NCBI GenBank assembly: GCA_964462555.1
Contig: CAYWXY010000001.1
Span: 1,577-65,576 of the forward strand
Source: an uncultured Pseudomonadota bacterium
GTDB taxonomy: Bacteria; UBA10199; GCA-002796325; CAYWXY01
DNA length: 64,000 bases
Reading direction: 5' to 3'
Below the pieces are notes generated by a model. It was not told the DNA's origin and searched no databases. It saw nothing but the letters and a program-made list of their open reading frames with translations. Position numbers and translations under genes: made by a program. Shown here in pieces: positions 563-47,448 of the stretch; within the stretch, counting starts at the first letter, position 1, and every line of letters starts with the position of its first letter.

Positions 563-571
563 TTATCCACA
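563..571 (+). promoter_or_regulatory. DnaA box (TTATCCACA, perfect consensus) in the dnaA-rpmH intergenic/oriC region
   Basis: Exact 9-mer TTATCCACA seen at 563-571, immediately upstream of the dnaA start. Confidence 0.7.
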
Positions 572-613: not shown

Positions 614-622
614 TGTGGATAA
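614..622 (-). promoter_or_regulatory. DnaA box (TGTGGATAA, reverse complement of TTATCCACA), inverted relative to the first box
   Basis: Exact 9-mer seen at 614-622; two perfect boxes within 60 bp between dnaA and rpmH. Confidence 0.7.
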
Positions 623-9500: not shown

Positions 9501-11387
9501 CCCGGGCTCGGAGCTGACGATGATCTAACCTGCGATGACGTCGACGACGATTGTAACGGTGAAACCGACGATGGCTACATTCCACAAAATACAGAGTGTG
9601 GTGTTGGCGCCTGTATGGCCGAAGGAATTACATCTTGCGTCGGTGGAACAGAGGTCGACGATTGCGCACCTGGAACGCCGGCCGAAAGCGATACCAATTG
9701 TGACGGCGTCGATGACGATTGTAATGGCGTGGCAGATGATGGATTTGTTTCGTATCCAACAAATTGTGGTCAAGGTGCCTGTTTTGCCGAAGGACTCGCG
9801 ACCTGTGTTGGCGGGGCTATCATCGATAGTTGTGAAGAGGGAACTCCGGCCCTTAACGATGTGACGTGCGATAATGTCGACGACGATTGCGATAATGAAA
9901 TCGACGAAGATTATATTGGCAACGCGATTCAATGTGGCGTCGGCGCCTGTATTGCAGACGGCATCACAGCCTGCGTTGGTGGGACAGAGCTCGACGACTG
10001 TACGCCGGGCCAACCCGCTGCAAGCGACACGACCTGTGATAATGTCGATGATGATTGTAACGGTGTGGCGGATGATGGTTTTGTTTCGTATTCGACAAAT
10101 TGTGGTCAAGGTGCCTGTTTTGCCGAAGGGCTTGCAACTTGTATAAATGGGATATTGAGCGACAGCTGCGAAGAAGGGATTCCGGCCCCGAACGATGTGA
10201 CATGCGATAATGACGACGATGATTGCGATAATGAAATCGACGAAGATTATATTGGTAATGCGATTCAGTGTGGTGTCGGCGCTTGTCTAGCAGATGGAAT
10301 CACAACATGCGTCGGTGGGGCAGAGCTCGACGACTGTACGCCGGGTCAACCAGCGCCATCGGATGAAAGTTGTGACAACGTCGATGACGATTGTAATAAC
10401 CAGACCGACGATGGTTTTGTTCCCTACTCCACCGAGTGTGGTGTAGGCGCATGCGTAGCCGAGGGAGAAGCGACCTGTGTGGGCGGAGAAATTCAGAATA
10501 GCTGCATACCGGGAATGCCCGCAATTAATGACGAGACATGCAACAACATCGACGACGACTGTGACGGCGCGACCGATGAAGACTTCGCATCCTATGTTAC
10601 GAGTTGTGGCGTCGGCGCCTGTCAAGCTGAGGGCCTGGCCACATGTGTGGGTGGAGAAGTGATCGACAGTTGCACGCCAGGAGAGGCGGCGGCCAACGAT
10701 GTAACATGCGATAATGTTGACGATGACTGTAATGGCGAAACCGATGAAGACTACGTTCCAACTGGGATGAGTTGCGGTGTTGGATCATGTGTTGAAAGTG
10801 GTCTCATACAGTGTGTGGGCGGCGAATTAATTGAAGAATGTACGCCGGGAACGCCAACCGATGAAATTTGCGATGGACACGATAACGATTGTGATGGAAA
10901 TACCGACGAGATCTGCATTGACAATATTCAAACGGGCTCCCTTCTCCTTGTTGGCTACACGACGCCGGCGAAGACGGAGATCATCAATAAAGAGGTTTTT
11001 GCAACAATCATTACCGGAGAGGCCCCCCTTCCCGATTCCTTTACGGTGGCGATTGAACATTGTATCGAAGAAGTCTGCACGACGACCGACCCGGTCGCCC
11101 TGGCTAACGGTATTGAACTCTGTGATTTTTCAGTGGGGCTTGGAAATGAGGCGTGCGAAGAAAATCAACCGGCCCCCATCAAGGAGTCAAATATTCTAGA
11201 TCTGACACTTGCGCAACTGATTCCCGGAATGAATCTTTGGTCCCTCTCTCAAGATGAAACATTCCGCGGCAACGTCACAACGTTGTCATACGACCTCGGC
11301 GGTTATAATATTGGTCTCGAGATTCCGATCCCCAACGCAGATGCGGCCTCATGCTACTATCTCTTTAACACCTACGCCTGCGATTAA
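3582..11387 (+). CDS. Giant (2601 aa) acidic cysteine-rich tandem-repeat protein. About 50 copies of a 45-aa six-Cys module ending in an LDLa/TSP3-like Ca-binding loop CDGxDDDCDGxTDEDF. No N-terminal signal peptide. Unique 190-aa C-terminal domain. Likely Ca-binding surface/secreted adhesin-like protein
   Basis: Single uninterrupted ORF. Repeat pattern C-x4-C-x7-C-x8-C-x11-C-x6-C with motifs CG(T/V)G(A/G)C, CxPGxPAxxD and CDG(I/V)DDDCDGETDEDF. Alternating module subtypes (ATECGTGAC.. / IQCGVGGC..). Near-identical DNA blocks recur at 672-bp offsets. First in-frame start is ATG 3582, with a stop at 3534. Confidence 0.85.
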   Translation: MIWGCTPYRPPPADYPELPDVSLHDVIHDTLVIKDTKGGDSLFDSFWDIKEKYDAEIDTFREDADGFVDAETSDTSDTFDAFDGEEMCEDLCFDISDSNDGDAEVCEFVGEIDDTCDDIDDDCDGETDEEFPIELTECGVGGCLSTGILACVGGDIVDTCVEKPAEIDDSFCDGIDGDCDGWTDEDFESETTSCGIGACFSEGLTLCIGGEVQDSCEPALPAPDDPGCDGIDDDCDDLVDEDFIPYPTSCGAGACAADGEATCEGGFIIDSCEPLATAPDDSECNGIDDDCDGETDEDFVSMVTACGIGGCASVGLTLCVGGSVQDSCKPGKPAPDDATCDAIDDDCDTKIDEDVHPIETECGTGACLGLGLATCLDGIMVDSCEEGVPALDDSECNGIDDDCDGETDEEFVSSATECGLGGCVSTGSTSCINGEVQNSCTPEMPTPDDAKCDGVDSDCDEEVDEDFMPYGIQCGVGGCIADGLAICLNGEISNECTPGAALEDDTSCDGIDGDCDSETDEDFVSMATMCGTGGCLAEGITLCIGGGIQDNCVPGEAAPNDASCNGVDDDCDGKTDEDYVQQITKCGVGGCFEEGATTCLGGVILDSCVAGTPALDDSECNGIDDDCDGETDEDFTSQATECGTGACLSSGETSCINGVVQNSCTPLSPAFDDATCDGIDDDCDNDLDEDFTPYSIQCGIGGCVADGLAICLNGEISNECTPGAALEDDTSCDGIDGDCDSETDEDFISMATICGTGGCLAEGVTLCIGGGVQDNCVPGEAAPNDASCNGVDDDCSGETDEDFISETTECGTGACWAQGLTICLNGMLIENCEELLPAIYDSECNGVDDDCNGETDEDFVSQATECGTGACVDSGETSCVNGEVQNNCVPLQPALDDATCNGVDDDCNGESDEDFIPYGIQCGVGICQANGLAICLNGEVVNECTPGLPAPDDTSCDATDNDCDGFSDEDYIPETSSCGVGACISEGTIYCIGGAFVDNCEPGQPSVELCDNIDNNCNNVIDDDCIEGDFTCDGVDDDEDGETDEEFEPYPTSCGIGECFAEGLATCVNASIIDSCEPGSPAPLDTICNNLDEDCDSNTDEDVIPVETYCGTGACAAEGLAICVGGEMQDSCTPGQAAATDTSCDGVDNNCNGETDEGFISYATSCGQGACLAEGLATCVNGDVVDDCTPGNPALDDATCNNVDDNCNGFIDEDFVQSITNCGVGACEKSGTTSCIDGDVIDSCVPGQAAQNDTSCNAVDDDCDGEEDEDFISQATECGTGACSSTGQTTCVAGEIVNDCVPGDPAANDATCNGVDDDCNNETDEDYQNAVIQCGVGACLADGLKLCVNGELTDECTPGQPAPTDSTCDNVDNNCNGETDEGFVSYATSCGQGACLAEGLATCVGGQVVDSCTPGNPALDDATCDNIDDNCNGFEDEDFASTVTNCGVGACEASGTTSCVDGDVIDSCVPGQAAQNDTSCNGVDDDCNGETDDGFVAQVTECGVGACAAEGATACVDGEITNNCTPGDPAGSDANCDGVDNNCNNEVDEDYQNAVIQCGVGACLADGLKLCVNGELTDECTPGQPAPTDSTCDNVDNNCNGEADEGFVSYVTSCGQGACLAEGLATCLAGNIIDSCLPGEAAANDSTCDNVDDDCDGFKDEDFIQVVTNCGVGPCEKEGITSCVDGEVMDSCLPGTPAPSDVNCDNIDDDCNGEADDGFIPYDIECGTGVCFAEGLALCVQGSIVNDCAEGEPTGNDSDCDNTDNNCNGFVDENFVPFGTGCGVGACAAEGMATCVGGEILNSCTPGEAAPNDTTCDGVDDDCDSAVDEDYQNVIIQCGVGACVEDGLKLCVGGEFVENCVPGDPAENDTTCDGVDDDCNGFNDEDFNPYGTNCGVGACFAAGTMTCVGGQLQNDCEPGAPALTDDECDGIDNNCNGTTDEEYAPEITACGSGACAAEGTTECMEGDIIDNCTPGLGADDDLTCDDVDDDCNGETDDGYIPQNTECGVGACMAEGITSCVGGTEVDDCAPGTPAESDTNCDGVDDDCNGVADDGFVSYPTNCGQGACFAEGLATCVGGAIIDSCEEGTPALNDVTCDNVDDDCDNEIDEDYIGNAIQCGVGACIADGITACVGGTELDDCTPGQPAASDTTCDNVDDDCNGVADDGFVSYSTNCGQGACFAEGLATCINGILSDSCEEGIPAPNDVTCDNDDDDCDNEIDEDYIGNAIQCGVGACLADGITTCVGGAELDDCTPGQPAPSDESCDNVDDDCNNQTDDGFVPYSTECGVGACVAEGEATCVGGEIQNSCIPGMPAINDETCNNIDDDCDGATDEDFASYVTSCGVGACQAEGLATCVGGEVIDSCTPGEAAANDVTCDNVDDDCNGETDEDYVPTGMSCGVGSCVESGLIQCVGGELIEECTPGTPTDEICDGHDNDCDGNTDEICIDNIQTGSLLLVGYTTPAKTEIINKEVFATIITGEAPLPDSFTVAIEHCIEEVCTTTDPVALANGIELCDFSVGLGNEACEENQPAPIKESNILDLTLAQLIPGMNLWSLSQDETFRGNVTTLSYDLGGYNIGLEIPIPNADAASCYYLFNTYACD

Positions 11388-29601: not shown

Positions 29602-29925
29602 ATGTCCGAAAATATTGTCGCAAAGATTCGAAAAGCCGAAGAAGATGCCCAGTCTTTTGTGGACCTGGCAAAGCGTGAATCAAGCGCCGGGATTGCCCAG
29701 GCCAAAAAAGATCTCGAGGCGGCTCATCAGAAGTCTGAAGCAGAATCCCGAGAACATCTCAAAAAGTTTCGAAAATCTAAGGCAGAAAAATACAGAGCCG
29801 AAACAAAACGATTAAGAGATGAAGGTAAGAAGGCAGAGACTGCCTATGCCCAGAATCTGGAAGCGCGCTTTGGTGAGATTAAGGCAAAAATCGAAGAGAT
29901 GATCAGGAAAGAGCTATGTCTATAG
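29602..29925 (+). CDS. V/A-type ATPase peripheral-stalk subunit G/H-like (small coiled-coil protein)
   Basis: 107 aa, Lys/Glu/Ala-rich heptad-like sequence; first gene of the V-type operon. Confidence 0.55.
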   Translation: MSENIVAKIRKAEEDAQSFVDLAKRESSAGIAQAKKDLEAAHQKSEAESREHLKKFRKSKAEKYRAETKRLRDEGKKAETAYAQNLEARFGEIKAKIEEMIRKELCL

Positions 29926-31871
29926 CCCGAATGGAAAAGATTCGAGTCGTCGGCCTCAAGCGTCAGCGCCGACAGATACTCGATCTCTTGCAGTCACTTG
30001 CTGTGCTGCAGGTTGAGGAAGTATGTGATGAGCCGATAACGCTCGAACGCGATATTCACTATGATTCCATGATTACCGATCTTGAATTTGCCATTGATTT
30101 TCTAGAGCCTCATGAAGAAAGCGCCAAGGGTTTTCTTGAGGGGCTAGCGCCCGGCAAGGTTATCGTCGACTATAAAGACGTGAAGGCGCGCGTTGGGAAG
30201 GTTCTCTCCGCTAAGCCGGTAAAGCGGTGTCGCCGGTTGGAATCCGAGCTCGTCAACCTAGACGAACTGGAGCGCAACCTCTCTCGCGAACGAATTCTCC
30301 TGACGCCATGGCAGGATCTTAATGAACCGCTCGAAGATCTTGTAAATATGAAACACGCGACATTTTTCGCAGGCATAATGGGAGAGCTGGAGATTGTACG
30401 GGCCCGCGAGGCCCTGGCCGATCTTCCGGCCGAGATTCAGGTGGTGAGACCGGACAAGAACGGTTCGCTAATTTTGGCCGTCGCTGAAAAAGAAGCGGCT
30501 GAAGAGGTTCAGCAAATTTTGCTGGAGAACGATTATTTACCAATCAAACTACCGGTGAGTCCACGGACGCCCAGCGAAGAGATTGCGAAGATCGATCATT
30601 CGCTGAAGGCGGCCAACGATCGCCGAAACGAAGTTATAGAAATCGCCAAGAAGATTGCTCGCGGCCGCTTCGACCTAATGTTAGCCCACGATTTCTTTAT
30701 GCAGAAGCGTGCAGCACAAAATGCCGAAAAGAAAGTGGCTCTTTCCCCATACACCTTTGTTGTCGAGGGGTGGATTCGGCGAAGAGAGCTTTCAAAAATG
30801 AAAAAAAAGCTACAGGCCTTCTTTCCCGATTCGCTTGTTGTATCAATCGAAGCGAAAGAGGACGAAGAGCCACCGGTGGCGATTGAAAACAGATCGATCG
30901 TTCGCCCATTTGAGTCGGTCACAGGCATCTACGGCCTCCCCTCGTATAAAGAGGTCGATCCGACCCCCCTCCTTTCAACCTTTTTTATCATCTTCTTTGG
31001 GCTCTGTCTTGGAGATGCAGGCTACGGAATCACGTTAGCGTTGGTCTCTTATTTTTTTTACAAAAAGGTCGGGCCGACGAGTGGCGCCAGAAAGCTACTA
31101 AAACTTCTATTCTACGGTGGCATCGCAACATTCATTGCTGGTGTCGTGGCGGGAGGTTGGTTTGGTGTCGAGCCGATCGCCTTTCCAGAGTCGTGGCAAC
31201 CTGCCCGAAATTTTCTCTTAAAGATTCGCATTCTCGACCCTGTCAACAACCCGATCCAGATGCTTCTCGTGGCCCTTTCGTTTGGCATTATTCAGATTGT
31301 CTTTGGTATCTTGATCAGCTTCTATGTCAAGGTGAGGGACGGCCTGATACTCGATGCTATCCTGGATGACCTTCTCTGGATCTATTTTCTCCTCATCCTG
31401 GTTGCCTTCGGCATCCAAAAGGCCGGGGCGATAACGATCAGTCCATATATTGGCAAGATGGTTCTCGGCGGGGTTGTGGCGCTTGTTTTGACGCAGGGAC
31501 GCAAAGAAAAGAATCTGATCTTAAAAATAGGCTCTGGCATCTTGAGCCTCTATAAGACAGTAGGTTATTTGAGCGACACCCTTTCCTACTCGCGTATCTT
31601 GGCGCTCGGTTTGGCCACATCAATCATTGCAATGGTGATTAATATGGTGGCCATCATGACGAAGGATATGATTCCAATTGTGGGATATGTCATCATGATT
31701 CTTGTCCTAATAGGTGGGCATATTTTCAACATTGCAGTGAATGTTTTGGGCTCATTTATCCATTCATCACGGTTGCAATTTGTGGAGTTCTTTTCGAAAT
31801 TTTTGGTGGGTGGCGGAACGGAATTTGACCCGCTTCGTCGCGAAAGTAAATTTGTTGAGATGAAAGAATAA
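29916..31871 (+). CDS. ntpI: V-type ATPase subunit I (a-subunit, membrane stator)
   Basis: 651 aa; hydrophilic N-terminal half and multi-TM C-terminal half with essential Arg in LSYSRILALGLATSIIAMVIN. Confidence 0.88.
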   Translation: MSIARMEKIRVVGLKRQRRQILDLLQSLAVLQVEEVCDEPITLERDIHYDSMITDLEFAIDFLEPHEESAKGFLEGLAPGKVIVDYKDVKARVGKVLSAKPVKRCRRLESELVNLDELERNLSRERILLTPWQDLNEPLEDLVNMKHATFFAGIMGELEIVRAREALADLPAEIQVVRPDKNGSLILAVAEKEAAEEVQQILLENDYLPIKLPVSPRTPSEEIAKIDHSLKAANDRRNEVIEIAKKIARGRFDLMLAHDFFMQKRAAQNAEKKVALSPYTFVVEGWIRRRELSKMKKKLQAFFPDSLVVSIEAKEDEEPPVAIENRSIVRPFESVTGIYGLPSYKEVDPTPLLSTFFIIFFGLCLGDAGYGITLALVSYFFYKKVGPTSGARKLLKLLFYGGIATFIAGVVAGGWFGVEPIAFPESWQPARNFLLKIRILDPVNNPIQMLLVALSFGIIQIVFGILISFYVKVRDGLILDAILDDLLWIYFLLILVAFGIQKAGAITISPYIGKMVLGGVVALVLTQGRKEKNLILKIGSGILSLYKTVGYLSDTLSYSRILALGLATSIIAMVINMVAIMTKDMIPIVGYVIMILVLIGGHIFNIAVNVLGSFIHSSRLQFVEFFSKFLVGGGTEFDPLRRESKFVEMKE

Positions 31872-31883
31872 CGTTTTTATTAA

Positions 31884-32362
<479 letters not shown>

Positions 32363-32363
<1 letters not shown>

Positions 32364-32923
32364 TGTCTCTCGACAATATATTAAAGAGAATCAAAGAACA
32401 GTCCGAGGGTGAGGCATCAGCGATTCGTCAAGGGGCTGAAGACGAAATTGCCAAGATCAATGAGGTTGGGAAAAAAGAGCATGACGCGTTGGATGCGGCC
32501 GTTCGAAAAGAAGAGGCGTCCATCGACACCGAATTGTCGAATGCTATCTTGCTCCCAGCGCGAATGGAGATACGCGGAGCCAAACTCAAGACGAAACAGG
32601 AGATGATCGACCGGGCCTTTAGCGATGCGATTCAGTTTTCAGATGACGACTATCAGCGCGTCCTCGATCATCTTTTTTCTCAGATCCCAAAGGTGACAGA
32701 CGGGACGATTCATCCAGCCGCGGGGAAAGAGGCGATCACAAAGGCCTATATAAAGAGTAAAAAAATCAAGGCCACGGTGGGAGATGCGGTTGATGCACTC
32801 AAGGGTGGTTTTATTCTCAAGAGTGGTCGCGTGGAATATGACTGTTCATTTGATACACTACTTAAAAAACTAAAGGAGCAACTCGAAACGGAGATTGCCC
32901 CGCTTTTTAACGACAATGAGTGA
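32363..32923 (+). CDS. ntpE: V-type ATPase subunit E
   Basis: 186 aa; N-terminal coiled coil with repeated EAxxI/K patterns; operon position. Confidence 0.8.
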
Positions 32924-33692
32924 AAACTATACATATGCTGTGGCGCGAATTCGCGCCCTTGAGGCAAAGATGCTCACTGCAACACAGGTCGGCCGGATGG
33001 TAGAGGCCGCTGATCTGGAACGGGCCTTCTTTGTTCTCAATGAAACAAGTTATGCTGAACATATCTCTGGGTCAGTCAGCCCCTTTAATTTTCATGAAAT
33101 TTTGAAGGCAGAACTCGATTCGGTTCATACCTTTCTGGAATATACGGCCGGAGATGACGACGCCCTTCGAACCTTCTGGCGGAAATACGACTATGGCAAT
33201 GCGAAACTCTTGCTCAGAAGGAGCGAAGAGGATGAAGAGGTGATTTCTGAAAAACTCCTTCATTACGGAAATGTAAAAATCGACCAGTTGACGACGTATA
33301 TCATGAAGGGTGAGGGACGGGTTCCCATCTGGTTAGACCACGCTGTGGGCCGCGCCCTCCTCCGTTTTGAGGAGGAAAAGAAGACGGCCGGGATCGATGA
33401 TGTTTTGGATGAGGCCTACTTTGACGATTTGGCTTTGAGCGGAAATGCCCTGTTAATGCGTCTTGCCAAGCTTTGGAGTGAACGCCCCTTTCCTTTTGAC
33501 TCTGAGGGGGATCGGGCGACAATTGATCTCCTGCGTCAGATTAAACGCAAGGCCTTTGGAATAGAACCATTGATCACATTTTGGCTCGCCAAGGTTTTGG
33601 AGGCACGTTTTATTCGTGTGATCTTGGCGGGGAAGAAACACCATGTGAAGATCGAATTGTTAAAAGAATATGTGAGAGAGACCTATGTCTGA
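32916..33692 (+). CDS. ntpC: V-type ATPase subunit C (d-type)
   Basis: MSENYTYAVARIRALEAKMLT... typical N-terminus of bacterial NtpC/AtpC; operon position. Confidence 0.75.
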   Translation: MSENYTYAVARIRALEAKMLTATQVGRMVEAADLERAFFVLNETSYAEHISGSVSPFNFHEILKAELDSVHTFLEYTAGDDDALRTFWRKYDYGNAKLLLRRSEEDEEVISEKLLHYGNVKIDQLTTYIMKGEGRVPIWLDHAVGRALLRFEEEKKTAGIDDVLDEAYFDDLALSGNALLMRLAKLWSERPFPFDSEGDRATIDLLRQIKRKAFGIEPLITFWLAKVLEARFIRVILAGKKHHVKIELLKEYVRETYV

Positions 33693-33993
33693 TATCGCGA
33701 TGATCGGAAGCATCGATCAAATACAACTCTTTGGCCTTTTGGGGCTGGATTTGTTCCCGGCAGAAAATGCCAGTGAGGCACGGGGGCAGCTAAGCCATTT
33801 AATCGAGGAAAAGAGTCATAAGGTTGTTTTTATCATGGAAGGGCTCGCATGTGAGATGCGAGACGAGATGCGCGAGGCTGAATTTTTGGATGAACCGGTT
33901 GTATCTCCCCTGCCCGACCATATTCGAGAGGTTTGCTATATCGATGATGAATTGCGTCGCCTCAGCAAGTCAGCGATTGGAATGGAAGTTTAA
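33685..33993 (+). CDS. ntpF: V-type ATPase subunit F
   Basis: 102 aa; MSDIAMIGSIDQIQLFGLLGLDLF matches the subunit F N-terminus. Confidence 0.8.
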   Translation: MSDIAMIGSIDQIQLFGLLGLDLFPAENASEARGQLSHLIEEKSHKVVFIMEGLACEMRDEMREAEFLDEPVVSPLPDHIREVCYIDDELRRLSKSAIGMEV

Positions 33994-34000
33994 TGAAAAA

Positions 34001-34112
34001 TACAAATTACAAGCACCAAATCACAAACAAATTCCAATATACAAATTACGAATGTTGTTTGTTTTGGTCATTGTGATTTGTCTATTGTTTGTAATTTGGA
34101 AATTGTAATTTG
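34001..34112. repeat. About 110-nt imperfect palindrome (AC-rich arm / GT-rich arm; CAAATTACAA...TTGTAATTTG) in the ntpF-ntpA intergenic region
   Basis: Arm 34003-34030 pairs with 34085-34112 (24 of 28 bases complementary); repeated CAAAT(T/C)ACAA motifs. Confidence 0.6.
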
Positions 34113-34123
34113 AGATTTTTATA

Positions 34124-35881
34124 TTGGAGACAAATATGGGACAAGAAGGAAAAATCGTACGTGTTGCAGGGCCGCTGGTTGTCGCCGAGGGAATTGAGGG
34201 TGCTCGGATGGCCGACGTTGTGAAGGTCGGTGAGTTAAAGCTCGTGGGAGAAATCATCGAGCTTAAGGGAGATAAGGCCTTCATCCAGGTCTACGAAGAG
34301 ACCGCCGGCATTGGCCCAGGGGATCCGGTCGAGACAACGGGCGAGCCCCTTTCAGTGACACTGGGACCGGGCCTGATATCCTCTATCTACGATGGCATTC
34401 AACGACCACTCAATTTGATTGAGGAAAAATCGGGCGTTTTCATTGCGCGAGGCATTGAGGTTCCATCGGTCGATATGGAAAAGAAGTGGGAATTTAAGGC
34501 AACAGCCAAAAAGGGCGACAAGGTTATTGGCGGCGATATTATTGGTGAGGTTGAAGAAAGTGCGCTGGTTGTCCATAAGATCATGATCCCTGAAGGAATT
34601 GAGGGAGAAATTGAAGAGATTAAATCGGGGAGCTTCAAGGTGTCCGAAGCCATTGCCAAGGTGGGCGGCAAAGAAATTACAATGATTCAAAAGTGGCCCG
34701 TTCGAAAACTTCGTCCCTTCGCAAAGAAACTCCCGGTGATTGAACCCTTAACGACCGGTCAACGAATTATCGATTCGCTCTTTACGCTTGCCAAGGGTGG
34801 AACCGCCGCCATCCCAGGTCCTTTTGGTTCGGGAAAAACGGTGGTTCAGCATCAAATTGCAAAGTGGGCCGATGTTGATATCGTCATCTTTGTCGGTTGC
34901 GGTGAACGTGGAAACGAAATGACCGATGTTCTTCTCGAATTTCCAGAGCTCAAGGATCCGACCAGCGGCAGACCTCTGATTGAACGAACGGTTCTGATTG
35001 CCAACACATCGAATATGCCGATTGCGGCACGTGAGGCGTCGGTCTACACGGGCTCGGCCATCGCCGAATATTTTCGAGATATGGGATATAATGTGGCTTT
35101 GATGGCCGATTCGACATCGCGCTGGGCGGAAGCTCTTCGTGAGATGTCGGGACGCCTTGAGGAGATGCCCGGAGAAGAAGGATATCCAGCCTACCTCGGT
35201 TCGCGTGTGGCTGAATTTTACGAACGCTCCGGTCGCGGTGTTTGCAAGGGAAGTGATGAAAATCGAATTGGAACACTGACGATGATAGGCTCAGTCTCCC
35301 CTGCCGGTGGTGATTTGTCGGACCCGGTGGTTCAAAATACCCTTCGTGTCGTCAAGGTCTTCTGGGGCCTTGATTACAAACTGGCCCACCAGCGACACTT
35401 TCCGGCGATCAATTGGCTCATCAGCTACTCCCTCTACCTCGACAATTTAGAACCGACCTTTCGGGATCAGGTGGATCCGGAATGGAGTCGGACCCGTGCC
35501 GACATGACCCGACTCCTTCAGGAAGAGGCGGAGCTTGAAGAAATCGTTCGACTCGTCGGTCAAGACGCCCTTTCCGATCGCGAACGGCTTATTCTATTTG
35601 TTACGAAATCGATCCGTGAGGATTTTCTCTATCAAAGCGCCTTTGATGACGTTGATCAGTTTTCAACATTTGAAAAACAGTTTCGAATGATGCATCTGTT
35701 GATTGATTTTTATCATCAAGCCCTGAAAACCCTCGAAGGGGGCATTACATTCGATAAGATTCAAAGGCTTAAGAACTTTGTGAAGGTCGCAAAGATGCGT
35801 TTCATACCCAATAACGAGCCCGAAAAGATCGATGAGATTCACAAGGCGTTAATTGCCGAACTCGGAACACTTAGAAAGTAG
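34124..35881 (+). CDS. ntpA: V-type ATPase catalytic subunit A
   Basis: 585 aa; Walker [18 protein letters not shown]; characteristic non-homologous insert region; strong similarity pattern to A subunits. Confidence 0.93.
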
Positions 35882-35891
35882 CGAGGAGCAT

Positions 35892-37286
35892 ATGGAGAAG
35901 GTTTACAAAACAACCGTTAGCATTTCCGGCCCACTCATTATGGTGGAGGATGTCGCCGGGGTCAAATACGACGAACTTGTTCAGGTCAAGACGGCGTCCG
36001 GAGAGCTTCGGAATGGCAAGGTCTTAGAGGTGGATCGGGATAAGGCCCTTGTTCAGGTCTTTGAGGGGACCGATAGTCTCGATATCAACAAGACCGAGAT
36101 TCGTTTTCAGGGGCGTGGTCTTCAATTTGGTCTGTCGCCCGATGTCATCGGTCGAACGTTTGATGGCCTCGGCCGCCCGATCGATGGGATGCCGCCATTG
36201 GTTGCCGACAAGAGCCTCGACATTAACGGAAACCCAATTAATCCCTATTCACGCAACTATCCTAATGACTTTATTCAGACCGGAATTTCATCGATCGATG
36301 GCATGAATACACTATCACGTGGTCAAAAGCTTCCGATTTTTTCGGCCTCCGGTCTCCCTCACCCTCGCGTTGCAGCGCAAATAGCTCGGCAGGCAAAGGT
36401 CTTAAAGGGCAAGGGAGAGTTTGCCGTTGTCTTTGCGGCCATGGGCATTACGTTCGAAGAGGCCGAATATTTTATGAGTAGCTTTCGAAAGACCGGCTCG
36501 ATCGAACGGGCTGTCCTCTTTTTGAATTTGGCCAACGATCCGGCCATCGAGCGAATTGCCACGCCAAAGATGGCGCTGACGACAGCCGAATATTTGGCCT
36601 TCGATTTAGGGATGCATGTCCTCGTTATTTTGACCGACATGACCAACTATTGTGAATCACTTCGCGAAGTCTCGGCCGCACGCAAAGAGGTCCCTGGCCG
36701 CCGCGGATATCCCGGTTATCTATATACCGATTTGGCCACAATGTACGAACGGGCCGGTCGAATCAAGGAACGGGAAGGTTCGATCACCATGATTCCCATT
36801 CTCACGATGCCGGAAGATGACAAGACCCACCCCATTCCCGATTTGACAGGGTATATTACAGAGGGGCAGCTCATTTTGTCGCGCGAACTGCATCAGAAGG
36901 GAATCTATCCGCCAATGGATGTGTTGCCATCGCTCTCCAGGCTCAAAGATAAGGGCATTGGGCCCGGGAAGACACGCGAAGATCACCCCGATCTTTCGAA
37001 CCAGCTCTTTGCGGCTTATACGAAGGGGCGCGAGGTACGAGAGCTAGTCGTCATCTTGGGTGAGGAGGCACTCAGCGATCTGGATCAGATCTATCTCAAA
37101 TTTGCTGATGCCTATGAAAAAGAGTTTATCGAACAGGGAGACGATGAACGCTCGATTGAAGACACTCTTGCGATCGGATGGGAACTCATATCGATGATTC
37201 CAGAGGAAGAGCTTCGTCGGATCAAGCCGGAGCTCATTGAGAAATATATGCATAAAAAAGTTGATAGTGCGGAAGTTCAGAAGTGA
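35892..37286 (+). CDS. ntpB: V-type ATPase subunit B
   Basis: About 465 aa; [18 protein letters not shown]...; [21 protein letters not shown] conserved B-subunit motifs. Confidence 0.92.
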
Positions 37287-37346
37287 GGAAGTTGATATAA
37301 TAGATGTCATCCTCCGGCGTGACCGGAGGATCCAGGGAGAGAAACA

Positions 37347-37973
37347 GTGGAGATAAGAGTCAGCGCCACACGAATGGAGTTGTTGAAGCTCAAGCGAAAG
37401 CTTGCCTTGGCCCAGCGCGGACATAAGCTTTTGAAGGACAAGCTCGATGGCCTCATTCAGAACTTCATTAAGACTAGCAAGGAACTCCGGACAACATATA
37501 ATGACTTGACCGAAGAGCTGAGCGTCTCGCTGTCTCACGGTATTTTGCTTGCAAAAGAGGTCGACCGGCAGTCATTAACGGCCGCCCTCACCTCCCCCTC
37601 CCTTGATCCAAAGGTGGAGCGTTCAACAAAAAATCTTATGGGTGTTCGTACGCCAAAGCTCGACTTGACGATCGGCGAGGAGTGGCAATCGTTTGGTCCC
37701 ACGTTTTTCTCAGAAAAATTCTTAAAGACGGTTGAGCAATATAAGGATCTCCTGCCCAAGATGCTTTTGATGGCCGAAAAATATAAAACACTTCAGAAAG
37801 TCGGCCGAGAAATCGTCGAAATCAAACGCCGCGTCAATGCCCTCGAATATGTCCTGATCCCGAGCCTCGAAGACAAGGTTCGCTATATCCGAATGAAGCT
37901 CGGTGAGATCGAACGCAGCACGACCGTCGGCCTCCTCAAGATCAAAGAACTCGTCCAATCAAACAGAGGTTAA
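37347..37973 (+). CDS. ntpD: V-type ATPase subunit D (central stalk); GTG start
   Basis: 208 aa; TRMELLKLKRKLALAQRGHKLLKDKLDGL typical NtpD N-terminus. Confidence 0.85.
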   Translation: MEIRVSATRMELLKLKRKLALAQRGHKLLKDKLDGLIQNFIKTSKELRTTYNDLTEELSVSLSHGILLAKEVDRQSLTAALTSPSLDPKVERSTKNLMGVRTPKLDLTIGEEWQSFGPTFFSEKFLKTVEQYKDLLPKMLLMAEKYKTLQKVGREIVEIKRRVNALEYVLIPSLEDKVRYIRMKLGEIERSTTVGLLKIKELVQSNRG

Positions 37974-38277: not shown

Positions 38278-38703
38278 CTATTTGTCGGATTCTGGATACA
38301 ATTCTTGGATTAAATTCATCAAAATCTCAATTTCGATGGCGAATTGCGATGTGACATTCATGATTTCACGTGGTTTTAGGTCTAAAAAGCCATTTATGGA
38401 CGTTCCTCGGAGATCCATCGCCATCAGCCAGATATCGGGCTCATTGATCCAGCTGAGGCGGACCCCTTCTTGAATGCAGGCGCGTGGGCTTAAGACATCG
38501 ATCCCCTGTTTGGAAAGGGAGATCTTGAGGAAATTGAGCGTCATGACGAAAAGATTCTCAAATCGTTTCATAAGGGCATCGAAGCAGAGAATCGCGTAAG
38601 GTTCGCTCGGTTTTTGCTCCTGATACGTCTCATAGGCCTCCTGGAATGATGTGAGTTTCTTTTGGAGGTCCTCGAGGGCCAATGTGAGCGTATAACGTTT
38701 CAT
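38278..38703 (-). CDS. HI0074-family nucleotidyltransferase-substrate-binding (HepT/HEPN-like) protein; the canonical Rx4-6H motif appears degenerate (RGTSINGF)
   Basis: ALMKRFENLFVMTLNFLKISLSKQGIDVLSPRACIQEGVRLSWINEPDIWLMAMDLRGTS resembles the ..IQRFEFTFELAWK..K..L...G....SPR..IREA......D...W..M...RN.TSHTY core. Confidence 0.5.
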   Translation of the reverse strand: MKRYTLTLALEDLQKKLTSFQEAYETYQEQKPSEPYAILCFDALMKRFENLFVMTLNFLKISLSKQGIDVLSPRACIQEGVRLSWINEPDIWLMAMDLRGTSINGFLDLKPREIMNVTSQFAIEIEILMNLIQELYPESDK

Positions 38704-38705
38704 CC

Positions 38706-39257
38706 CTAGTCCTTACTCGCGAATAGTGCCTTTTCGTCCGTATAGCCATGGAGCCGGACATATTGTTCCTGAATCATCAATTTGTACCAAAGGGGTGCCG
38801 CATTCAGATTGACGATGTCGATCCGATATGGAAAGGCGCTGTCGAACAATTTTTGGCGAAGAATGCCAAGTTCCTTCTCCTTTGGTGCCCGCGGAAAATA
38901 GACGGCAAAATTCCAGTCAGGCTTAGGGCCAAATTTTCCAATATCATTTGAGCTGAATAATAAGAGATCGGCCTTATATTTTTTCGCAAACTCAAAAAGC
39001 TGATATGAGATCACCTTGATTCTGTCGGGCGCCCTTTTCATTGCCTCGAAGGCCAAGGTCCGATCCGATGTCAAAACACGATAGTCGACATTCAGAAATT
39101 GGCGGATTTTTTCAAACGTCGAATTAAAAACGGACGAATCTTCAAACATATTGTAGATCGATTGTCTCGATATGCCGCAATAATCGGAGAGCTTGTTGAC
39201 GGAGACACCCCTCGTCTTCAGAATCGATTCAAGCTTCAATTTGTCCAAGTACAGCAT
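38706..39257 (-). CDS. HTH (XRE-like) domain fused to a minimal-nucleotidyltransferase-like domain (MntA-like partner; catalytic GS/DxD motif degenerate: FSS...DWN)
   Basis: N-terminal SVNKLSDYCGISRQSIYNMFED helix-turn-helix; C-terminal LLLFSSNDIGKFGPKPDWNFAVYF aligns to hG[GS]x9-13DxD of minimal NTases; 3-bp gap to the downstream HI0074-like gene. Confidence 0.45.
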   Translation of the reverse strand: MLYLDKLKLESILKTRGVSVNKLSDYCGISRQSIYNMFEDSSVFNSTFEKIRQFLNVDYRVLTSDRTLAFEAMKRAPDRIKVISYQLFEFAKKYKADLLLFSSNDIGKFGPKPDWNFAVYFPRAPKEKELGILRQKLFDSAFPYRIDIVNLNAAPLWYKLMIQEQYVRLHGYTDEKALFASKD

Positions 39258-39694
39258 AATTACTTGTATAATTAATAAGACAAAATGTCAAATATATAAG
39301 ACTACTCATGCTGGCGGTCATCTGTCGGCCCGAATGGAGGCCTATATATTGTTAAATATATGATAAATAAGGAATATATATGAGTAGATTATAGGCGAGC
39401 ATGGCCGAGGCCAAAAAATGGCCTAATTTTGTCTAAAATCGCTCTTCCCGACCCATTCCCCTCCTACCACGCTAAAAATCGCGAGAATCGAGAATGAGCG
39501 CGAGGAAATAATGCTGTAAAATCATATAGATACATGGATCTCCAGAGAAAAGTCAATAAAAACAAGCAGATAGGGCTATTGGCGATTTTGTGTTCGTATA
39601 ATGGGGCGGCGGAGAGTGCGGCGCATAATGAATGTCGTATAGTGTTACATGCTTTTCGGGCGATGGCGGGGTCTTCTTGTCGTCGGTCGACAAA

Positions 39695-39710
39695 TGTTTC
39701 ACGTGAAACA
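39695..39710. promoter_or_regulatory. parS centromere-like site, perfect 16-bp consensus TGTTTCACGTGAAACA
   Basis: Exact palindrome read directly; 155 bp upstream of parA. Confidence 0.85.
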
Positions 39711-39791
39711 TTTCGGTACCCGAAGATGAATTTTTTCAAAATAGGGAAGGGGCGATGCCATCACGAAGTTCACTTGGTCAAAAAAAGAAAT

Positions 39792-39807
39792 TGTTTCACG
39801 TGAAACA
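39792..39807. promoter_or_regulatory. Second perfect parS site TGTTTCACGTGAAACA
   Basis: Exact palindrome; 58 bp upstream of parA; followed by degenerate half-site TTTCACTTGAAAT. Confidence 0.85.
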
Positions 39808-39864
39808 ATTTCACTTGAAATAAGAGGCAAAAGTGTACTACGTAATAGATCACAAAAACGAGGG

Positions 39865-40677
39865 GTGTCTATGTCATCAATCATTGGAATCTGTAATCAA
39901 AAGGGTGGGGTCGGCAAGACGACGACAGCTGTATCTCTAGCGTCCTGTCTAGCCGCTGCTGAGAAGAGGACGCTTCTCATCGATATCGATCCTCAGGGAA
40001 ACGCAACGACAGGCCTAGGGATCGACAAACGAAACATTACAAAGAGCGTCTATGATCTGATGATTGGTCGCGCATCCGTTGGCGAATTGGCCTGTGACAC
40101 GATGATTGAACATCTCAAACTGATTCCATCCAATAATGAGCTTGCGGGTGCCGAGGTAGAGCTAGTCGGCATGATATCGAGAGAAACGCGACTGAAGACG
40201 GGCCTAAGGGCAGCTCATGACAATTACGATTACATTATCCTAGATTGTCCACCGTCATTGGGGCTTCTGACGCTGAACGCCATGACGGCAGCAGAATCGT
40301 TAGTCATTCCGGTACAATGCGAATATTATGCCATGGAGGGGATGGCCGACCTATACCAAACAATCAAACTGGTCCGTTCCCATCTGAATCCCCAGCTAAA
40401 GGTCATGGGGATCGTTCTAACGATGTTTGACGCACGAAATAATCTGTCTAGGCAGGTTGCAAGCGAGGTTCGGGAATACTTTAAGGAAGAGGTCTTTCAG
40501 GTCATCATACCGAGAAATGTAAAGCTTTCAGAGGCACCCAGCTATGGGAAACCGATACTTCTCTACGACGTTGCATCAAAGGGTGCGGAGAGCTATTTCG
40601 CGCTGGCCTCAGAGGTGATTGCCTTGACAGATAAGGCAAGGACCCAGGAGTCTGAGGCGCTGAGCACCGCTGAGTAA
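39865..40677 (+). CDS. parA: Chromosome partitioning ATPase ParA/Soj
   Basis: Deviant Walker A IGICNQKGGVGKTTTAVSLAS; 270 aa. Confidence 0.92.
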   Translation: MSMSSIIGICNQKGGVGKTTTAVSLASCLAAAEKRTLLIDIDPQGNATTGLGIDKRNITKSVYDLMIGRASVGELACDTMIEHLKLIPSNNELAGAEVELVGMISRETRLKTGLRAAHDNYDYIILDCPPSLGLLTLNAMTAAESLVIPVQCEYYAMEGMADLYQTIKLVRSHLNPQLKVMGIVLTMFDARNNLSRQVASEVREYFKEEVFQVIIPRNVKLSEAPSYGKPILLYDVASKGAESYFALASEVIALTDKARTQESEALSTAE

Positions 40678-42587: not shown

Positions 42588-43082
42588 ATGGGGGAGACAC
42601 TCTATCTTGCGTTATTGAATCTCGGACTGATTGTTGCCGGGGCCTACCTTTTAAGTCGCGGCAGAGTAAAGAGGTTCATAAAAAACCGATATATAATGAT
42701 TATGGCTCAGAGAAGGAACGTTGAGGCCGATCTTGGGGAGGCGAAGGCCAACAACAAGACCTTTCGGGCGCGAATGGAATCGATCCGGGACGATATCGAT
42801 CAGGCACTTGAAGATGCAGAGGTTGCCGGGGAGCACGACGGAAAAAAAATGCTAATCGATGCAGAAATAATGGCCGATCAAATTATTGGTAGATCGATGC
42901 AGCGGGCAGACCACGAAATCATGAAAAAGGATCGAGAATTTTATCACGACCTTGTTGAACGCTATGTTGAAGAAGTTGAGCAACAACTTAAGGGAAAGAC
43001 AACGCTGGAACAGCAGGTTCGTTGGGGGAAAAAGATATTAAGAAAAATTGAGGCCGGGGAGAGAAGAAGCGATGGACGCTAA
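42588..43082 (+). CDS. atpF: F0F1 ATP synthase subunit b
   Basis: N-terminal TM LYLALLNLGLIVAGAYLL then charged coiled coil; precedes atpH. Confidence 0.7.
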   Translation: MGETLYLALLNLGLIVAGAYLLSRGRVKRFIKNRYIMIMAQRRNVEADLGEAKANNKTFRARMESIRDDIDQALEDAEVAGEHDGKKMLIDAEIMADQIIGRSMQRADHEIMKKDREFYHDLVERYVEEVEQQLKGKTTLEQQVRWGKKILRKIEAGERRSDGR

Positions 43083-43632
43083 GATTGTCGGCAGACGATA
43101 TGCCGCAGCACTATATCGTCTGGCAAAGAAAGAACGGATTGAATATCGGCTCGAGACCGAGTTGAAGATGATTCAATGTCAGATTGAGGAATATCCCGAT
43201 TGGGGAGCACTTCTTGCTGATCACTTCATGCCGTCCTCTGAAAAATGTCTCATGTTGGATGAATTTGCAGGTGTTTCTGGGATTCATCGACACACACTAG
43301 CGCTCCTTAAAGTCCTTGTTGAAGAACGTCGGGTGGTCGTTTTTGAGGAAATTTATAAGGCCTTTAATAAGATGTGGCGGGAGGGGCGCGGAGAGATAGA
43401 GGTTGTTGTAACGGCAGCGCATCCAGAAGTTTTGGTTGAACTGAAAGAGGATATCCAAAAAACGCTTTACTCTGTGGGGAAAAGGTCGCCCATCGTTCGG
43501 GGAAAAGTAGATCCAGAGATTATAGGGGGTCTTCGTATTAAAATTGGCGATGTTGTTTATGATGGAAGTATTCGGGAACAACTCAAGAAGGTGCGGCGAG
43601 ACCTCCTTGTCGCGGCTGAGGCGGTTTCTTAA
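43072..43632 (+). CDS. atpH: F0F1 ATP synthase subunit delta (OSCP)
   Basis: RYAAALYRLAKK N-terminus and C-terminal GGLRIKIGDVVYDGSIREQL typical of delta. Confidence 0.8.
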   Translation: MDAKIVGRRYAAALYRLAKKERIEYRLETELKMIQCQIEEYPDWGALLADHFMPSSEKCLMLDEFAGVSGIHRHTLALLKVLVEERRVVVFEEIYKAFNKMWREGRGEIEVVVTAAHPEVLVELKEDIQKTLYSVGKRSPIVRGKVDPEIIGGLRIKIGDVVYDGSIREQLKKVRRDLLVAAEAVS

Positions 43633-43647
43633 CCAGCGGGGAATGAA

Positions 43648-45147
43648 ATGACATTAAAAATCAATGAAGTAAGCGAGTTGATCGAGCGACAGATCGAAAA
43701 TTATGGTCAATACATTGCGAAGGAAGAGGTGGGTGAGATTATCTCCGTGGGTGATGGTATTGCCCGCATTCATGGTTTGACGAAGGCGATTTCGGGCGAG
43801 CTTCTCGAGTTTCCGAATAACATTCGAGGAATGGTGCTAAATCTCGAAGAAGACAATGTCGGTGCCGTGATTATGGGCAATGATGAATTGTTGCGTGAAG
43901 GGGATGAGGTCAGGCGGACCGGAGAGGTGGTATCGGTCCCAGTAGGGGACGCGCTTCTCGGTCGCGTTGTTGACGCCCTGGGGCGGCCTCTTGATGGTAA
44001 GGGGCAACTACGGGCAAGCGAGCATCGTCCCGTTGAGTCAGAGGCCCCAGGAATTATTGATCGTCAACCGGTATCGGAGCCTCTTGAGACCGGAATCAAG
44101 ATCGTTGATGCCCTAACACCAATCGGACGGGGCCAGCGGGAGCTCATTATTGGCGATCGGCAAACGGGGAAAACGGCAATCGCAATTGATGCGATCATCA
44201 ATCAAAAAGGGCGTGATGTTTGCTGTATCTATGTGGCCATTGGTCAGAAGATGTCGACCGTAGCTCGCGTTGTGGACAAGTTAACACAGATGGGGGCCAT
44301 GGCCTACACCACCGTCATCAATTCATCAGCATCCGATCCAGCGCCACTCCAATTTCTAGCACCATACAGCGGGGCGGCCATGGGTGAACACTGGCGCGAC
44401 GATGGGAAACATGTCTTGATCATCTATGACGATCTTTCAAAACATGCGGTGGCCTATCGACAAATTTCACTCTTGCTTAGACGTCCACCAGGGCGGGAGG
44501 CCTATCCCGGCGATGTCTTTTACCTTCATTCACGTCTCCTCGAGCGTTCTGCAAAGATGAACGATGCGCTCGGCGCAGGATCGCTAACGGCCCTGCCTAT
44601 CGTCGAAACACAGGATGGTGATGTCACAGCCTATATTCCGACAAATATTATTTCGATGACCGATGGTCAAATTTACCTAGAGCCAGATCTCTTTTATGCG
44701 GGCGTTCGTCCCGCGATGAATGTCGGTCTTTCAGTTTCACGAGTAGGGGGGGCTGCACAGAGCGCGGCAATGAAAGAGGTTGGCGGACAGCTTCGAATCG
44801 AGCTTGCGCAATATCGGGAGTTGGAGAGTTTTTCACAATTTGGTGGAGAACTTGACTTGGCGTCGAGAAAAAAGTTGGCACGTGGGCAAATATTGATAGA
44901 GGTCTTGAAGCAGAACCAGTTTGTACCCCTTTCGTCAGGCCTTCAGGTGATTCATCTCTATGCGGCGGTTCATGGCTGGTTGGACCATACTCCAGTTCAA
45001 CAGATAAAGGACCGAATGACGAAACTTTCTTCATTTATTACAAAGACAAACAAAGAAATTATTGCCGAAATCGAGACAAAGGGCGAATTGGACAGTTCGA
45101 TTAAGAAGTCGATTGACGAAATACTCGGAAGTTTTCAGTGGGGATAG
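43648..45147 (+). CDS. atpA: F0F1 ATP synthase subunit alpha
   Basis: Walker [19 protein letters not shown]; 499 aa; canonical alpha motifs. Confidence 0.95.
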
Positions 45148-45150
45148 ACC

Positions 45151-46032
45151 GTGCAGAAGCTTAAGGAAATAAAAAAACGGATTCGATCGGTCCAGTCGAC
45201 GATGAAGATTACGGGCGCGATGCGGATGATCTCAATATCCAAGCTCCGGGCAGCCCAGGGAAATGCAGAACGCTCCAGACTTTACTGTGATGGACTGAGA
45301 GATATAGCCCTCAGAATTGCAGCCAAAAGCAATGGTGAGGGGCACCCAGCTCTACTTCTGAAGTCAAACCCCAAAAAAGCAACACTGGTTGTGATCGCTT
45401 CTCAGAAGGGGTTCTGTGGAAACCTAAACGAGAATCTCTTTAATCAGATCAACCATTTTGTCCAAATGATGGAAGATCGTGGCACACACATGACAACGTT
45501 CGTCGCTGGGGCAAAGGGTTTTCGGCACTTCTCAAAGGGACAAATTGAATGTGAGCGGCTGGATGTGGGGATTGAGGATCTCCTCGTAAAGATTAAGCTC
45601 GAGGGGATTTGCCGACACCTGCTGCAGCTCTATCTTTCAGGCGAAACCGATCAGATTTTTTTGGCCTACCAGGGGTTTGAATCAATCACACGCCAGAGGG
45701 TCGAGCTGGAAATGTTTTTGCCAATCTGGGTTCGAGAGAGTGAAAGACCGAAGACTGGGAGTACAGTCGACTATCTTTACGAGCCATCAAAAGATGATGT
45801 GGTTGATATGCTTATTCAAAAAACACTTCGTTCAACTTTCTTTCAAGCCCTCTTGGAGAGCTGGGCGTCAGAATTGGCCGCCCGAATGGTGACGATGGAT
45901 CAAGCGCTGAGAAATGCACGTGATGTTGTGGGTCAGCTGACAAAGCAATATCATCATGTTCGACAAACGGTTATTACACGGGATCTGCTGGATATTGTCG
46001 GTGGGGCCGAGGCACTTCGAAATCAACAGTAA
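45151..46032 (+). CDS. atpG: F0F1 ATP synthase subunit gamma (GTG start)
   Basis: LKEIKKRIRSVQSTMKITGAMRMISISKLRAAQ N-terminus; conserved C-terminal helix. Confidence 0.92.
   Translation: MQKLKEIKKRIRSVQSTMKITGAMRMISISKLRAAQGNAERSRLYCDGLRDIALRIAAKSNGEGHPALLLKSNPKKATLVVIASQKGFCGNLNENLFNQINHFVQMMEDRGTHMTTFVAGAKGFRHFSKGQIECERLDVGIEDLLVKIKLEGICRHLLQLYLSGETDQIFLAYQGFESITRQRVELEMFLPIWVRESERPKTGSTVDYLYEPSKDDVVDMLIQKTLRSTFFQALLESWASELAARMVTMDQALRNARDVVGQLTKQYHHVRQTVITRDLLDIVGGAEALRNQQ

Positions 46033-47448
<1,416 letters not shown>

Follow-up and report, generated by a model that had tools for sequence, protein, structure and literature searches.

A HepT/MntA-like gene pair with degenerate active sites beside parS: a probable regulatory derivative of a type VII toxin-antitoxin operon

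Can a toxin-antitoxin (TA) operon outlive the chemistry of both of its products? Type VII HepT/MntA modules are regarded as among the most abundant TA families, and their logic needs three elements: an RNase site, an acceptor Tyr and a nucleotidyltransferase (NTase) site. The question is raised by a two-gene HepT/MntA-like module at positions 38278-39257 of a 64-kb stretch of DNA from an uncultured Pseudomonadota bacterium (the window, 64,000 nucleotides in all), in which the motifs of all three elements are altered. The initial annotation of this locus offered three options: a decayed TA system, a regulatory derivative, or a variant with different chemistry. Among these the regulatory derivative is best supported, by purifying selection, conservation of the helix-turn-helix (HTH) domain, a conserved operator-like element and a fixed chromosomal position. 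We consider it probable, with real reservations, that the module is a domesticated, autoregulated HTH-pseudoMntA/pseudoHepT pair that regulates by binding DNA and descends from a type VII TA operon.

The features of the module are as follows.

38706-39257, minus strand: HTH-pseudo-MntA gene, an open reading frame (ORF) of 183 aa, identified by its AlphaFold2 (AF2) fold and by Foldseek and family-profile matches
39072-39257, minus strand: XRE-type HTH (about aa 1-62), followed by a helical linker
38709-38972, minus strand: minimal-NTase domain of the MntA type (about aa 96-183)
38910-38954, minus strand: degenerate NTase motif S102-S103-X10-D114-W115-N116, codons read directly, in place of GSX10DXD
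38278-38703, minus strand: pseudo-HepT gene, an ORF of 141 aa encoding a HEPN protein of the HI0074/PF08780 type
38386-38409, minus strand: degenerate HEPN motif R99-G-T-S-I-N104-G-F106, on which HMMER (1wty, 1jog) and MAFFT alignments agree
39261-39293, minus strand: predicted promoter/operator, from cross-locus conservation

Catalytic motifs of the two proteins

The module consists of two intact minus-strand ORFs, of 183 and then 141 codons' worth of protein, at the coordinates first assigned to it. The minimal nucleotidyltransferase (MNT) gene lies upstream of and adjacent to the HEPN gene, which is the layout of the Class I HEPN/MNT (HepT/MntA) systems described by Yao et al. (PMC7641770) as neighbouring genes carrying GSX10DXD and RX4HXY, with PF08780 partners included. 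The spacing had been given as 3 bp; the gap is in fact 2 nt (38704-38705), between the TAG of the first gene (38706-38708) and the next ATG (38701-38703), and a Shine-Dalgarno (SD)-like AAGGA is found within the 3' end of the first gene. The GC content at third codon positions (GC3) of the two genes, 0.56 and 0.59, is inside the range of the neighbouring genes. PADLOC made no defence-system assignment for the module.

The upstream protein had been read as an XRE-type HTH fused to a minimal NTase, and the predicted fold agrees. The AF2 model (mean predicted local distance difference test, pLDDT, 83) was compared by halves using Foldseek: the N-terminal half of this predicted fold matched the XRE HTHs of CapH-NTD, C.BclI, SinR and HipB with probability 1.0, and the best matches of the C-terminal half were MntA (6m6v/5yep), HI0073 (1no5) and the MNT protein 7ae9. 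Pfam scores for the HTH were just under threshold (HTH_26, 20 vs 22 bits; HTH_3, 17.6 vs 23), and the NTase domain also scored below cut-off against Polbeta PF18765 (17 vs 26.9 bits) and NCBIfam MntA NF047752 (25.3 vs 60). A profile built from 18 homologs, all of which (18/18) retain the MLYLDK start, matched the MNT antitoxin 7ae2_B and HI0073 (1no5, E=0.005). This profile alignment pairs FSSNDIGKFGPKPDWNFA of the window with FGSRATGNINANSDWDFA of 7ae2_B, placing FSSNDIG..PDWNFA of the window opposite FGSRATG..SDWDFA in its core. The canonical residues of GS and DxD therefore read SS and DWN, as had been noted from the letters; the alignment to 7ae2_B and the canonical relatives described below give the same reading. 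SS-X10-DWN keeps the canonical X10 spacing, and the GSX10DXD of Class I NTases is absent.

The downstream protein scored 35.1 bits against Pfam NTase_sub_bind PF08780, passing its gathering score of 31.8, and 35 bits against TIGR01987 (HI0074), below the curated cut-off of 55.8, as a divergent relative would. HMMER found direct matches to TTHA0048 (1wty, E=1e-5) and HI0074 (1jog). In these alignments RGTSINGF stands opposite RN..xHxY: R99 is kept, the catalytic His is replaced by N104, and the Tyr that accepts AMP is replaced by F106. There is no His residue anywhere in the 141-aa protein, and it lacks the RX4HXY of Class I HEPN proteins. An AF2 model built from a 3-sequence alignment (pLDDT 68) has the four-helix HEPN fold, with the HEPN toxins 8yuf/8xdj as best Foldseek matches (TM 0.78), followed by 1wty and 1jog. 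The HI0074/HEPN-like assignment and the missing motif His thus held up; the loss of the acceptor Tyr had been overlooked. Profile searches and alignment of the motif columns place both genes in their respective families with the canonical residues absent.

In Shewanella, D39E/D41E in MntA abolishes AMPylation and Y104A in HepT abolishes modification, and in the T. cleftensis homologue either Y82F or GS to AT abolishes modification (PMC7641770). With the catalytic His of the HEPN protein lost, and the Arg replaced by Lys in some members of its clade, RNA cleavage would not be expected; the Tyr that MntA would AMPylate is lost as well. With Gly missing from GS and the second Asp missing from DxD in the NTase, AMP transfer would not be expected either.

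Clade-wide losses, constraint and the promoter

Homologs of the HTH-NTase protein are few: 18 in a set of 5.8 billion proteins, and only 33 proteins at E<=1e-10 in a 1.84-billion representative library. Searched on its own, the HEPN sequence matched only 2 near-identical proteins, and the HEPN partners of the homologs were recovered as neighbours of the HTH-NTase homologs. Wherever a homologous locus extends far enough downstream, a PF08780 gene immediately follows the HTH-NTase gene; the contigs L016 and L009 end before the partner position, and the L009 HTH-NTase copy itself ends at residue 150. The clade to which the window belongs has 14 HTH-NTase members, of which 8 loci hold both genes and 5 fell outside the partner check. 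Identity of its HTH-NTase proteins to that of the window is 54-64% in distant lineages and reaches 91% in L019.

The state of the two partners is matched. The most distant relatives examined (P0018, P0019, P0020 and L010, 42-49% identity) carry FGSRAxGK..DWDF, and the partners of canonical NTases (four HTH-MNT relatives with GS..DWD were examined) carry RNATVHDY or RNGSVHDY. The partners of DWN-type NTases read RNSSINGI, KVSTINKT, RSSTINKT, KSSSMNGI, RSSSMGGD and KTLSMSEL. His and Tyr are both gone from 8/8 HEPN partners in the clade, no His column common to them was found, and the motif Arg is kept in five and replaced by Lys in the other three. Among 118 further HEPN relatives from a search with the partner profile, R..H.Y is intact in 116, and the other two have His to Arg. 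These two PF08780 relatives (P0101 and P0109, RNGSVRDYF) keep the acceptor Tyr, and theirs is an independent, different alteration of the HEPN site. On the NTase side, about 130 relatives retain GS..DxD, and degenerate forms were found only in the clade of the window plus the representatives P0144, P0146, P0154 and P0165. In a neighbour-joining (NJ) tree the degenerate forms are monophyletic and nested inside canonical HTH-MNT fusions, with canonical HTH-MNT/HEPN pairs as direct sister forms. Because the same substitutions recur across the whole homolog clade, the altered motifs are far beyond chance. This restriction of all three losses to one clade had also escaped the initial annotation.

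Within the clade the catalytic positions are not fixed in any new state. Position 102 of the NTase is G, S, N, K, D or E, position 116 is N, S, H, D or T, and position 147 is D, E, N or S; GS is retained in three members and ExD is found in one. In the HEPN partners the Arg position is R or K, the His position N, G or S, and the Tyr position F, I, T, D or L. This variation from member to member points to released constraint and not to a replacement active site. Since the loss of His and Tyr is universal and the loss of NTase residues is heterogeneous, the toxin may have died first, with catalytic constraint on the antitoxin relaxing afterwards.

The genes themselves are not decaying. The ratio of nonsynonymous to synonymous substitution (dN/dS, Nei-Gojobori) against L019, whose module shares 91% amino-acid and 82-87% nucleotide identity with that of the window, comes to 0.056 (NTase gene) and 0.022 (HEPN gene), both values coming from this one close pair and the second being approximate, as its synonymous sites are near saturation (pS 0.69). 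Both ORFs are intact in all eight clade loci holding both genes, and 15 columns of the NTase and 12 of the HEPN protein are invariant. Thus, of the proposal of a decayed TA system, the loss of catalytic residues stands and the decay of the genes does not. The HTH is the best-conserved segment in the clade (identity 0.71). Mean pairwise identity within the clade is 0.42 for HEPN and 0.60 for NTase (HEPN/NTase ratio 0.70), and in canonical pairs it is 0.57 and 0.52 (ratio 1.09); constraint on the HEPN protein is relaxed relative to its partner, and HEPN is now the faster-evolving of the two.

The region upstream of the operon is conserved along with the HTH. A TTGACA is found at 39291-39286, the palindrome core GACAAAATGTC at 39279-39289, and an imperfect palindrome, TGTCTTATTAATTATACA, extends into the -10 region; a repeat search also reported an inverted repeat here. 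The core GACAWWWTGTC has this single occurrence in the window. An arrangement of TTGACAttTTGTCTTatat..ATACA directly upstream of the ATG is common to 10/10 clade loci (of the form TTGACAwwwTGTCTTATATAT..). The same element is upstream of the canonical relatives L008, L010, L014 and L017, and hence of every family member: L017 has TTGACATTATGTCTTATATATAAGACA, which holds the perfect 18-bp palindrome TGTCTTATATATAAGACA, L010 and L014 have TTGACATATTGTCTTATATAT..GACA, and the L008 version, AGACAATATGTCTT, is more divergent. A sigma-70 scan did not call this promoter, because its -10 is non-consensus. As the ATG is about 8-12 nt past the -10-like ATACA, the mRNA may have little or no leader.

Judged by its form, the element most likely resembles an autoregulatory operator, and we regard it as a putative operator because it overlaps the promoter and has been co-inherited with the HTH across wide divergence. 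The XRE-HTH would most likely bind the GACA/TGTC palindromes over the -35/-10 of its own promoter and repress the operon. The pseudo-HEPN protein, which the 2-nt gap and the SD-like AAGGA suggest is translationally coupled, would probably be a bound partner or a co-repressor. What selection appears to keep is a DNA-binding unit of two proteins.

On the plus strand, a TATAAT preceded by TG is found inside the operator region (39267-39272), directed away from the module, and about 140 nt past it there is a terminator-like hairpin, AGGCCAAAAAATGGCCT, with a T-run (39408-39434, plus strand). Together these could represent a short divergent transcript; the stretch is conserved no further than the close relative L019. 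A known RNA in the intergenic region (39258-39864) was rejected, as an Rfam scan gave only a chance match below threshold.

The parS-parA neighbourhood

The module is next to a chromosome partition locus, a linkage that also was absent from the initial annotation.

39695-39710 and 39792-39807, palindromic: two perfect copies of parS (TGTTTCACGTGAAACA) on the upstream side of the divergent parA; a linked neighbour and at most a candidate functional part of the module
39865-40677, divergent from the module: parA, next to the parS pair

The two parS copies are 97 nt apart, each within a longer 22-nt palindrome. After the second site there is a third, degenerate and half-overlapping parS-like copy, TTTCACTTGAAA, at 39809-39820. 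On this side of the module the order is parS-parS-parA-parB-bactofilin, with an F-type ATP synthase operon beyond it. The genes for V-type ATPase subunits I (29916-31871), A (34124-35881), B (35853-37286) and D (37347-37973) form an operon on the other side. An origin of replication in the intergenic region 39258-39864 was rejected, since it contains no DnaA boxes at up to 1 mismatch.

This position is shared by the clade. In each of the six clade loci that extend far enough upstream (window/L004, L007, L011, L012, L016 and L018), a perfect or near-perfect parS was found 0.3-1.8 kb from the module on its upstream side. parA itself was seen in three of these (window/L004, L012 and L016), and in L012 and L016 it is the next gene, with 71-82% identity. 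The opposite flank varies. The window has V-ATPase D there, L007 and L015 have a CN-hydrolase, L013 has an ArsP-type permease and L011 has gidB/gidA; in L013 and L015, V-ATPase D is one gene further out. The possibility of a further conserved element in the interval from parS to the module was rejected, as only parS and the promoter/operator are common across lineages. Canonical relatives (L008, L010, L014, L017 and others) are found in varied contexts with no parS nearby. The neighbour-like GC3, together with the fixed parS/parA position despite the variable other flank, gives the module a native, vertically inherited look.

Outside the clade the module was not seen. It is absent from 80/80 parA loci of GTDB species representatives in a ParA scan, whose best ParA identity was 67% (metagenome-assembled genomes, MAGs, of uncultured Myxococcales, 'delta proteobacterium' and Bdellovibrionota), and a scan of GTDB genomes with the HTH-NTase profile gave no match. 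The module appears restricted to a narrow uncultured lineage and vertically inherited there.

Several other observations concern the surroundings. The gidA-gidB-parA-parB arrangement is a classical junction, and in L011 (1-4236) the module is between parS and gidB (rsmG), in opposite orientation to gidB, with gidA (mnmG) near. Long intergenic stretches of 1-2 kb separate parA and the module in L012 (780-2828) and L016 (752-1772); they contain no called genes, nor elements common to other loci besides parS and the module promoter. In the window, the F-type ATP synthase operon (delta, alpha, gamma, beta) occupies 43048-47448, so that V-type (29916-37973) and F-type ATPase operons lie within 15 kb, on either side of the parS-parAB-bactofilin locus. 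Further away, a giant ORF of 2601 aa (3582-11387, plus strand) has many MopE-type Cu-binding motif repeats (PF11617), and its DNA is repetitive: TTATCCACA occurs exactly at 7019, 7691 and 8363, and the regular spacing of 672 nt marks these as repeated domains and not DnaA boxes. Two perfect DnaA-box nonamers of the same sequence (TTATCCACA) are found near the left end of the window, inverted and 43 nt apart (563-571, plus strand; 614-622, minus strand); they could be chance or a DnaA-regulated site.

Alternative readings and comparison with known systems

Several points count against the module being a domesticated regulatory pair. We infer from computation throughout, as with every functional statement made here, that the pair is catalytically inactive and non-toxic, that its proteins form a complex and that it binds the operator; the last two points draw on conservation and on how relatives behave. 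S103, D114 and D147 (two of the three carboxylates) remain in the NTase and R99 remains in the HEPN protein, so residual or altered activity is possible from sequence. The HEPN model falls below pLDDT 50 at residues 98-107, which is exactly the motif. The dN/dS values have the limits given with them, the clade is thinly sampled (mostly short metagenomic contigs from few sequencing projects), and no target beyond the module's own promoter was identified.

A working TA system of non-canonical type is unlikely, although it survives better than the other alternatives. Here the HEPN protein would do harm by a route other than His-dependent cleavage, such as binding to RNA or ribosomes or sequestering them. 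The HTH-NTase protein would act as in type II systems, neutralizing the HEPN protein through stoichiometric binding, and would autoregulate the operon. Such a system would explain the classic layout (the antitoxin gene leading, 2 nt between the genes, an operator of autoregulatory appearance), as well as the pairing of the genes in every locus with downstream sequence and the Arg retained in five of eight clade HEPN proteins; and Class II HEPN/MNT pairs, which lack RX4H, are nevertheless discussed as TA modules (PMC7641770). However, His, Tyr and, in three of eight, Arg are gone with no conserved replacement, and constraint on HEPN is relaxed relative to canonical pairs. TA modules are typically patchy and mobile in distribution, whereas this one has a fixed core-chromosome position and native composition, and it is absent from, rather than scattered among, the 80 related parA loci.

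It is doubtful, more so than a non-canonical TA system, that the pair has been recruited to origin-proximal chromosome biology, through a functional tie to parABS or through nucleotide sensing by the pseudo-NTase. An HTH-pseudoNTase/pseudoHEPN complex, perhaps one whose partly kept NTase pocket still senses a nucleotide, could modulate parAB expression or the ParB-parS partition complex, and the linkage to parS, which has persisted as the other flank turned over, is suggestive of such a tie. Simple vertical inheritance beside a very stable locus also explains the linkage. If the tie were real, chromosome segregation would have a regulator derived from a TA module.

Altered chemistry, in which the NTase and/or the HEPN protein would still be enzymes that use the substituted residues (with a different metal geometry, nucleotide or acceptor), is slightly less plausible again, and we regard it as quite improbable. 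Little or no variation is seen at S103, D/E114, W115 and G110, the window keeps D147, and Asn is the majority state at position 116 in the clade; the pocket has not been eroded at random and might still bind nucleotide. But S103, G110, D/E114, W115 and F117, the residues conserved among clade NTases, are also kept in active relatives, so their conservation may be structural. Positions 102, 116 and 147 and the HEPN His and Tyr differ among members, as under relaxed selection, and in a characterized MntA even Asp to Glu kills activity (PMC7641770). The suggestion of a variant chemistry is therefore disfavoured by the absence of conservation at the substituted catalytic positions; some nucleotide binding by the pseudo-NTase pocket may persist. 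A functionless TA remnant on its way to pseudogenes would account for catalytic residues lost in both partners, but it is hardly credible and is effectively refuted by the low dN/dS of both genes, the intact and paired ORFs, the invariant columns and the conserved promoter.

Should the pair be a domesticated regulator, it would be a clean natural example of a whole TA module turned into a pair of pseudoenzymes, with the RNase site, acceptor Tyr and NTase site lost together in one lineage under strong purifying selection. It would also provide a system for asking about non-enzymatic roles (DNA binding, scaffolding) of MNT-HEPN complexes. Annotation that is blind to motifs would call these genes a 'TA system' or a 'nucleotidyltransferase substrate-binding subunit'; either label would probably be an error.

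Among characterized systems, the type VII (Class I) HepT/MntA pair of Shewanella oneidensis (SO_3166/SO_3165; 5yep, 6m6v, 7bxo) has the same order, MNT first, and the same MntA and HEPN folds (predicted for the window), and its motifs align column by column with ours. The window has SSX10DWN for its GSX10DXD and RX4NXF for its RX4HXY, adds an N-terminal XRE HTH, has a HEPN protein of PF08780 and not PF01934, and occupies a fixed parS-adjacent location. The closest solved relatives in sequence, HI0073/HI0074 of H. influenzae and TTHA0048 of Thermus (1no5, 1jog, 1wty), have HEPN proteins of the same PF08780/TIGR01987 family; unlike the window, they keep RNxxxHxY and GS..DxD and have no HTH fusion. 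The HEPN/MNT pair of Aphanizomenon flos-aquae (7ae2, 7ae9), the best profile match in the PDB, shares the unusual Trp in the D-W-D triplet; it differs in having no HTH, in being active as an enzyme and in carrying AMP on its Tyr. Nearest of all, the canonical HTH-MNT/HEPN pairs (P0018-P0020, L008, L010, L014, L017 and about 100 representatives) have the same fusion, PF08780 partner and palindrome; they differ in keeping GS..DWD..D and RNxxVHDY and in their varied contexts without parS.

There is precedent for parts of this. About 17% of HEPN-M proteins lack Rx4-6H, and TA-derived MNT-HEPN units have been domesticated with an inactive HEPN and an active NTase, the GlnE/GlnD-type enzymes and kanamycin nucleotidyltransferase being examples in which an inactive HEPN is kept as partner of the MNT domain (PMC3710099). 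The Class II pairs similarly provide precedent for a HEPN partner without RX4H. In both the domesticated enzymes and Class II, however, the NTase is active and GSX10DXD is conserved, whereas in the window the NTase site is degenerate as well and, judging from sequence conservation, the activity retained appears to be DNA binding. Makarova et al. 2009 (PMC2701414) speculated about a trans-encoded DNA-binding component for MNT-HEPN; the passages of that paper considered here make no mention of an XRE-HTH-MNT fusion family, which may be described elsewhere. What is new here is the combination of inactivation of both partners, strong selection, HTH fusion and a fixed parS-adjacent site, and we regard it as a variation on a known theme and not a new kind of system.

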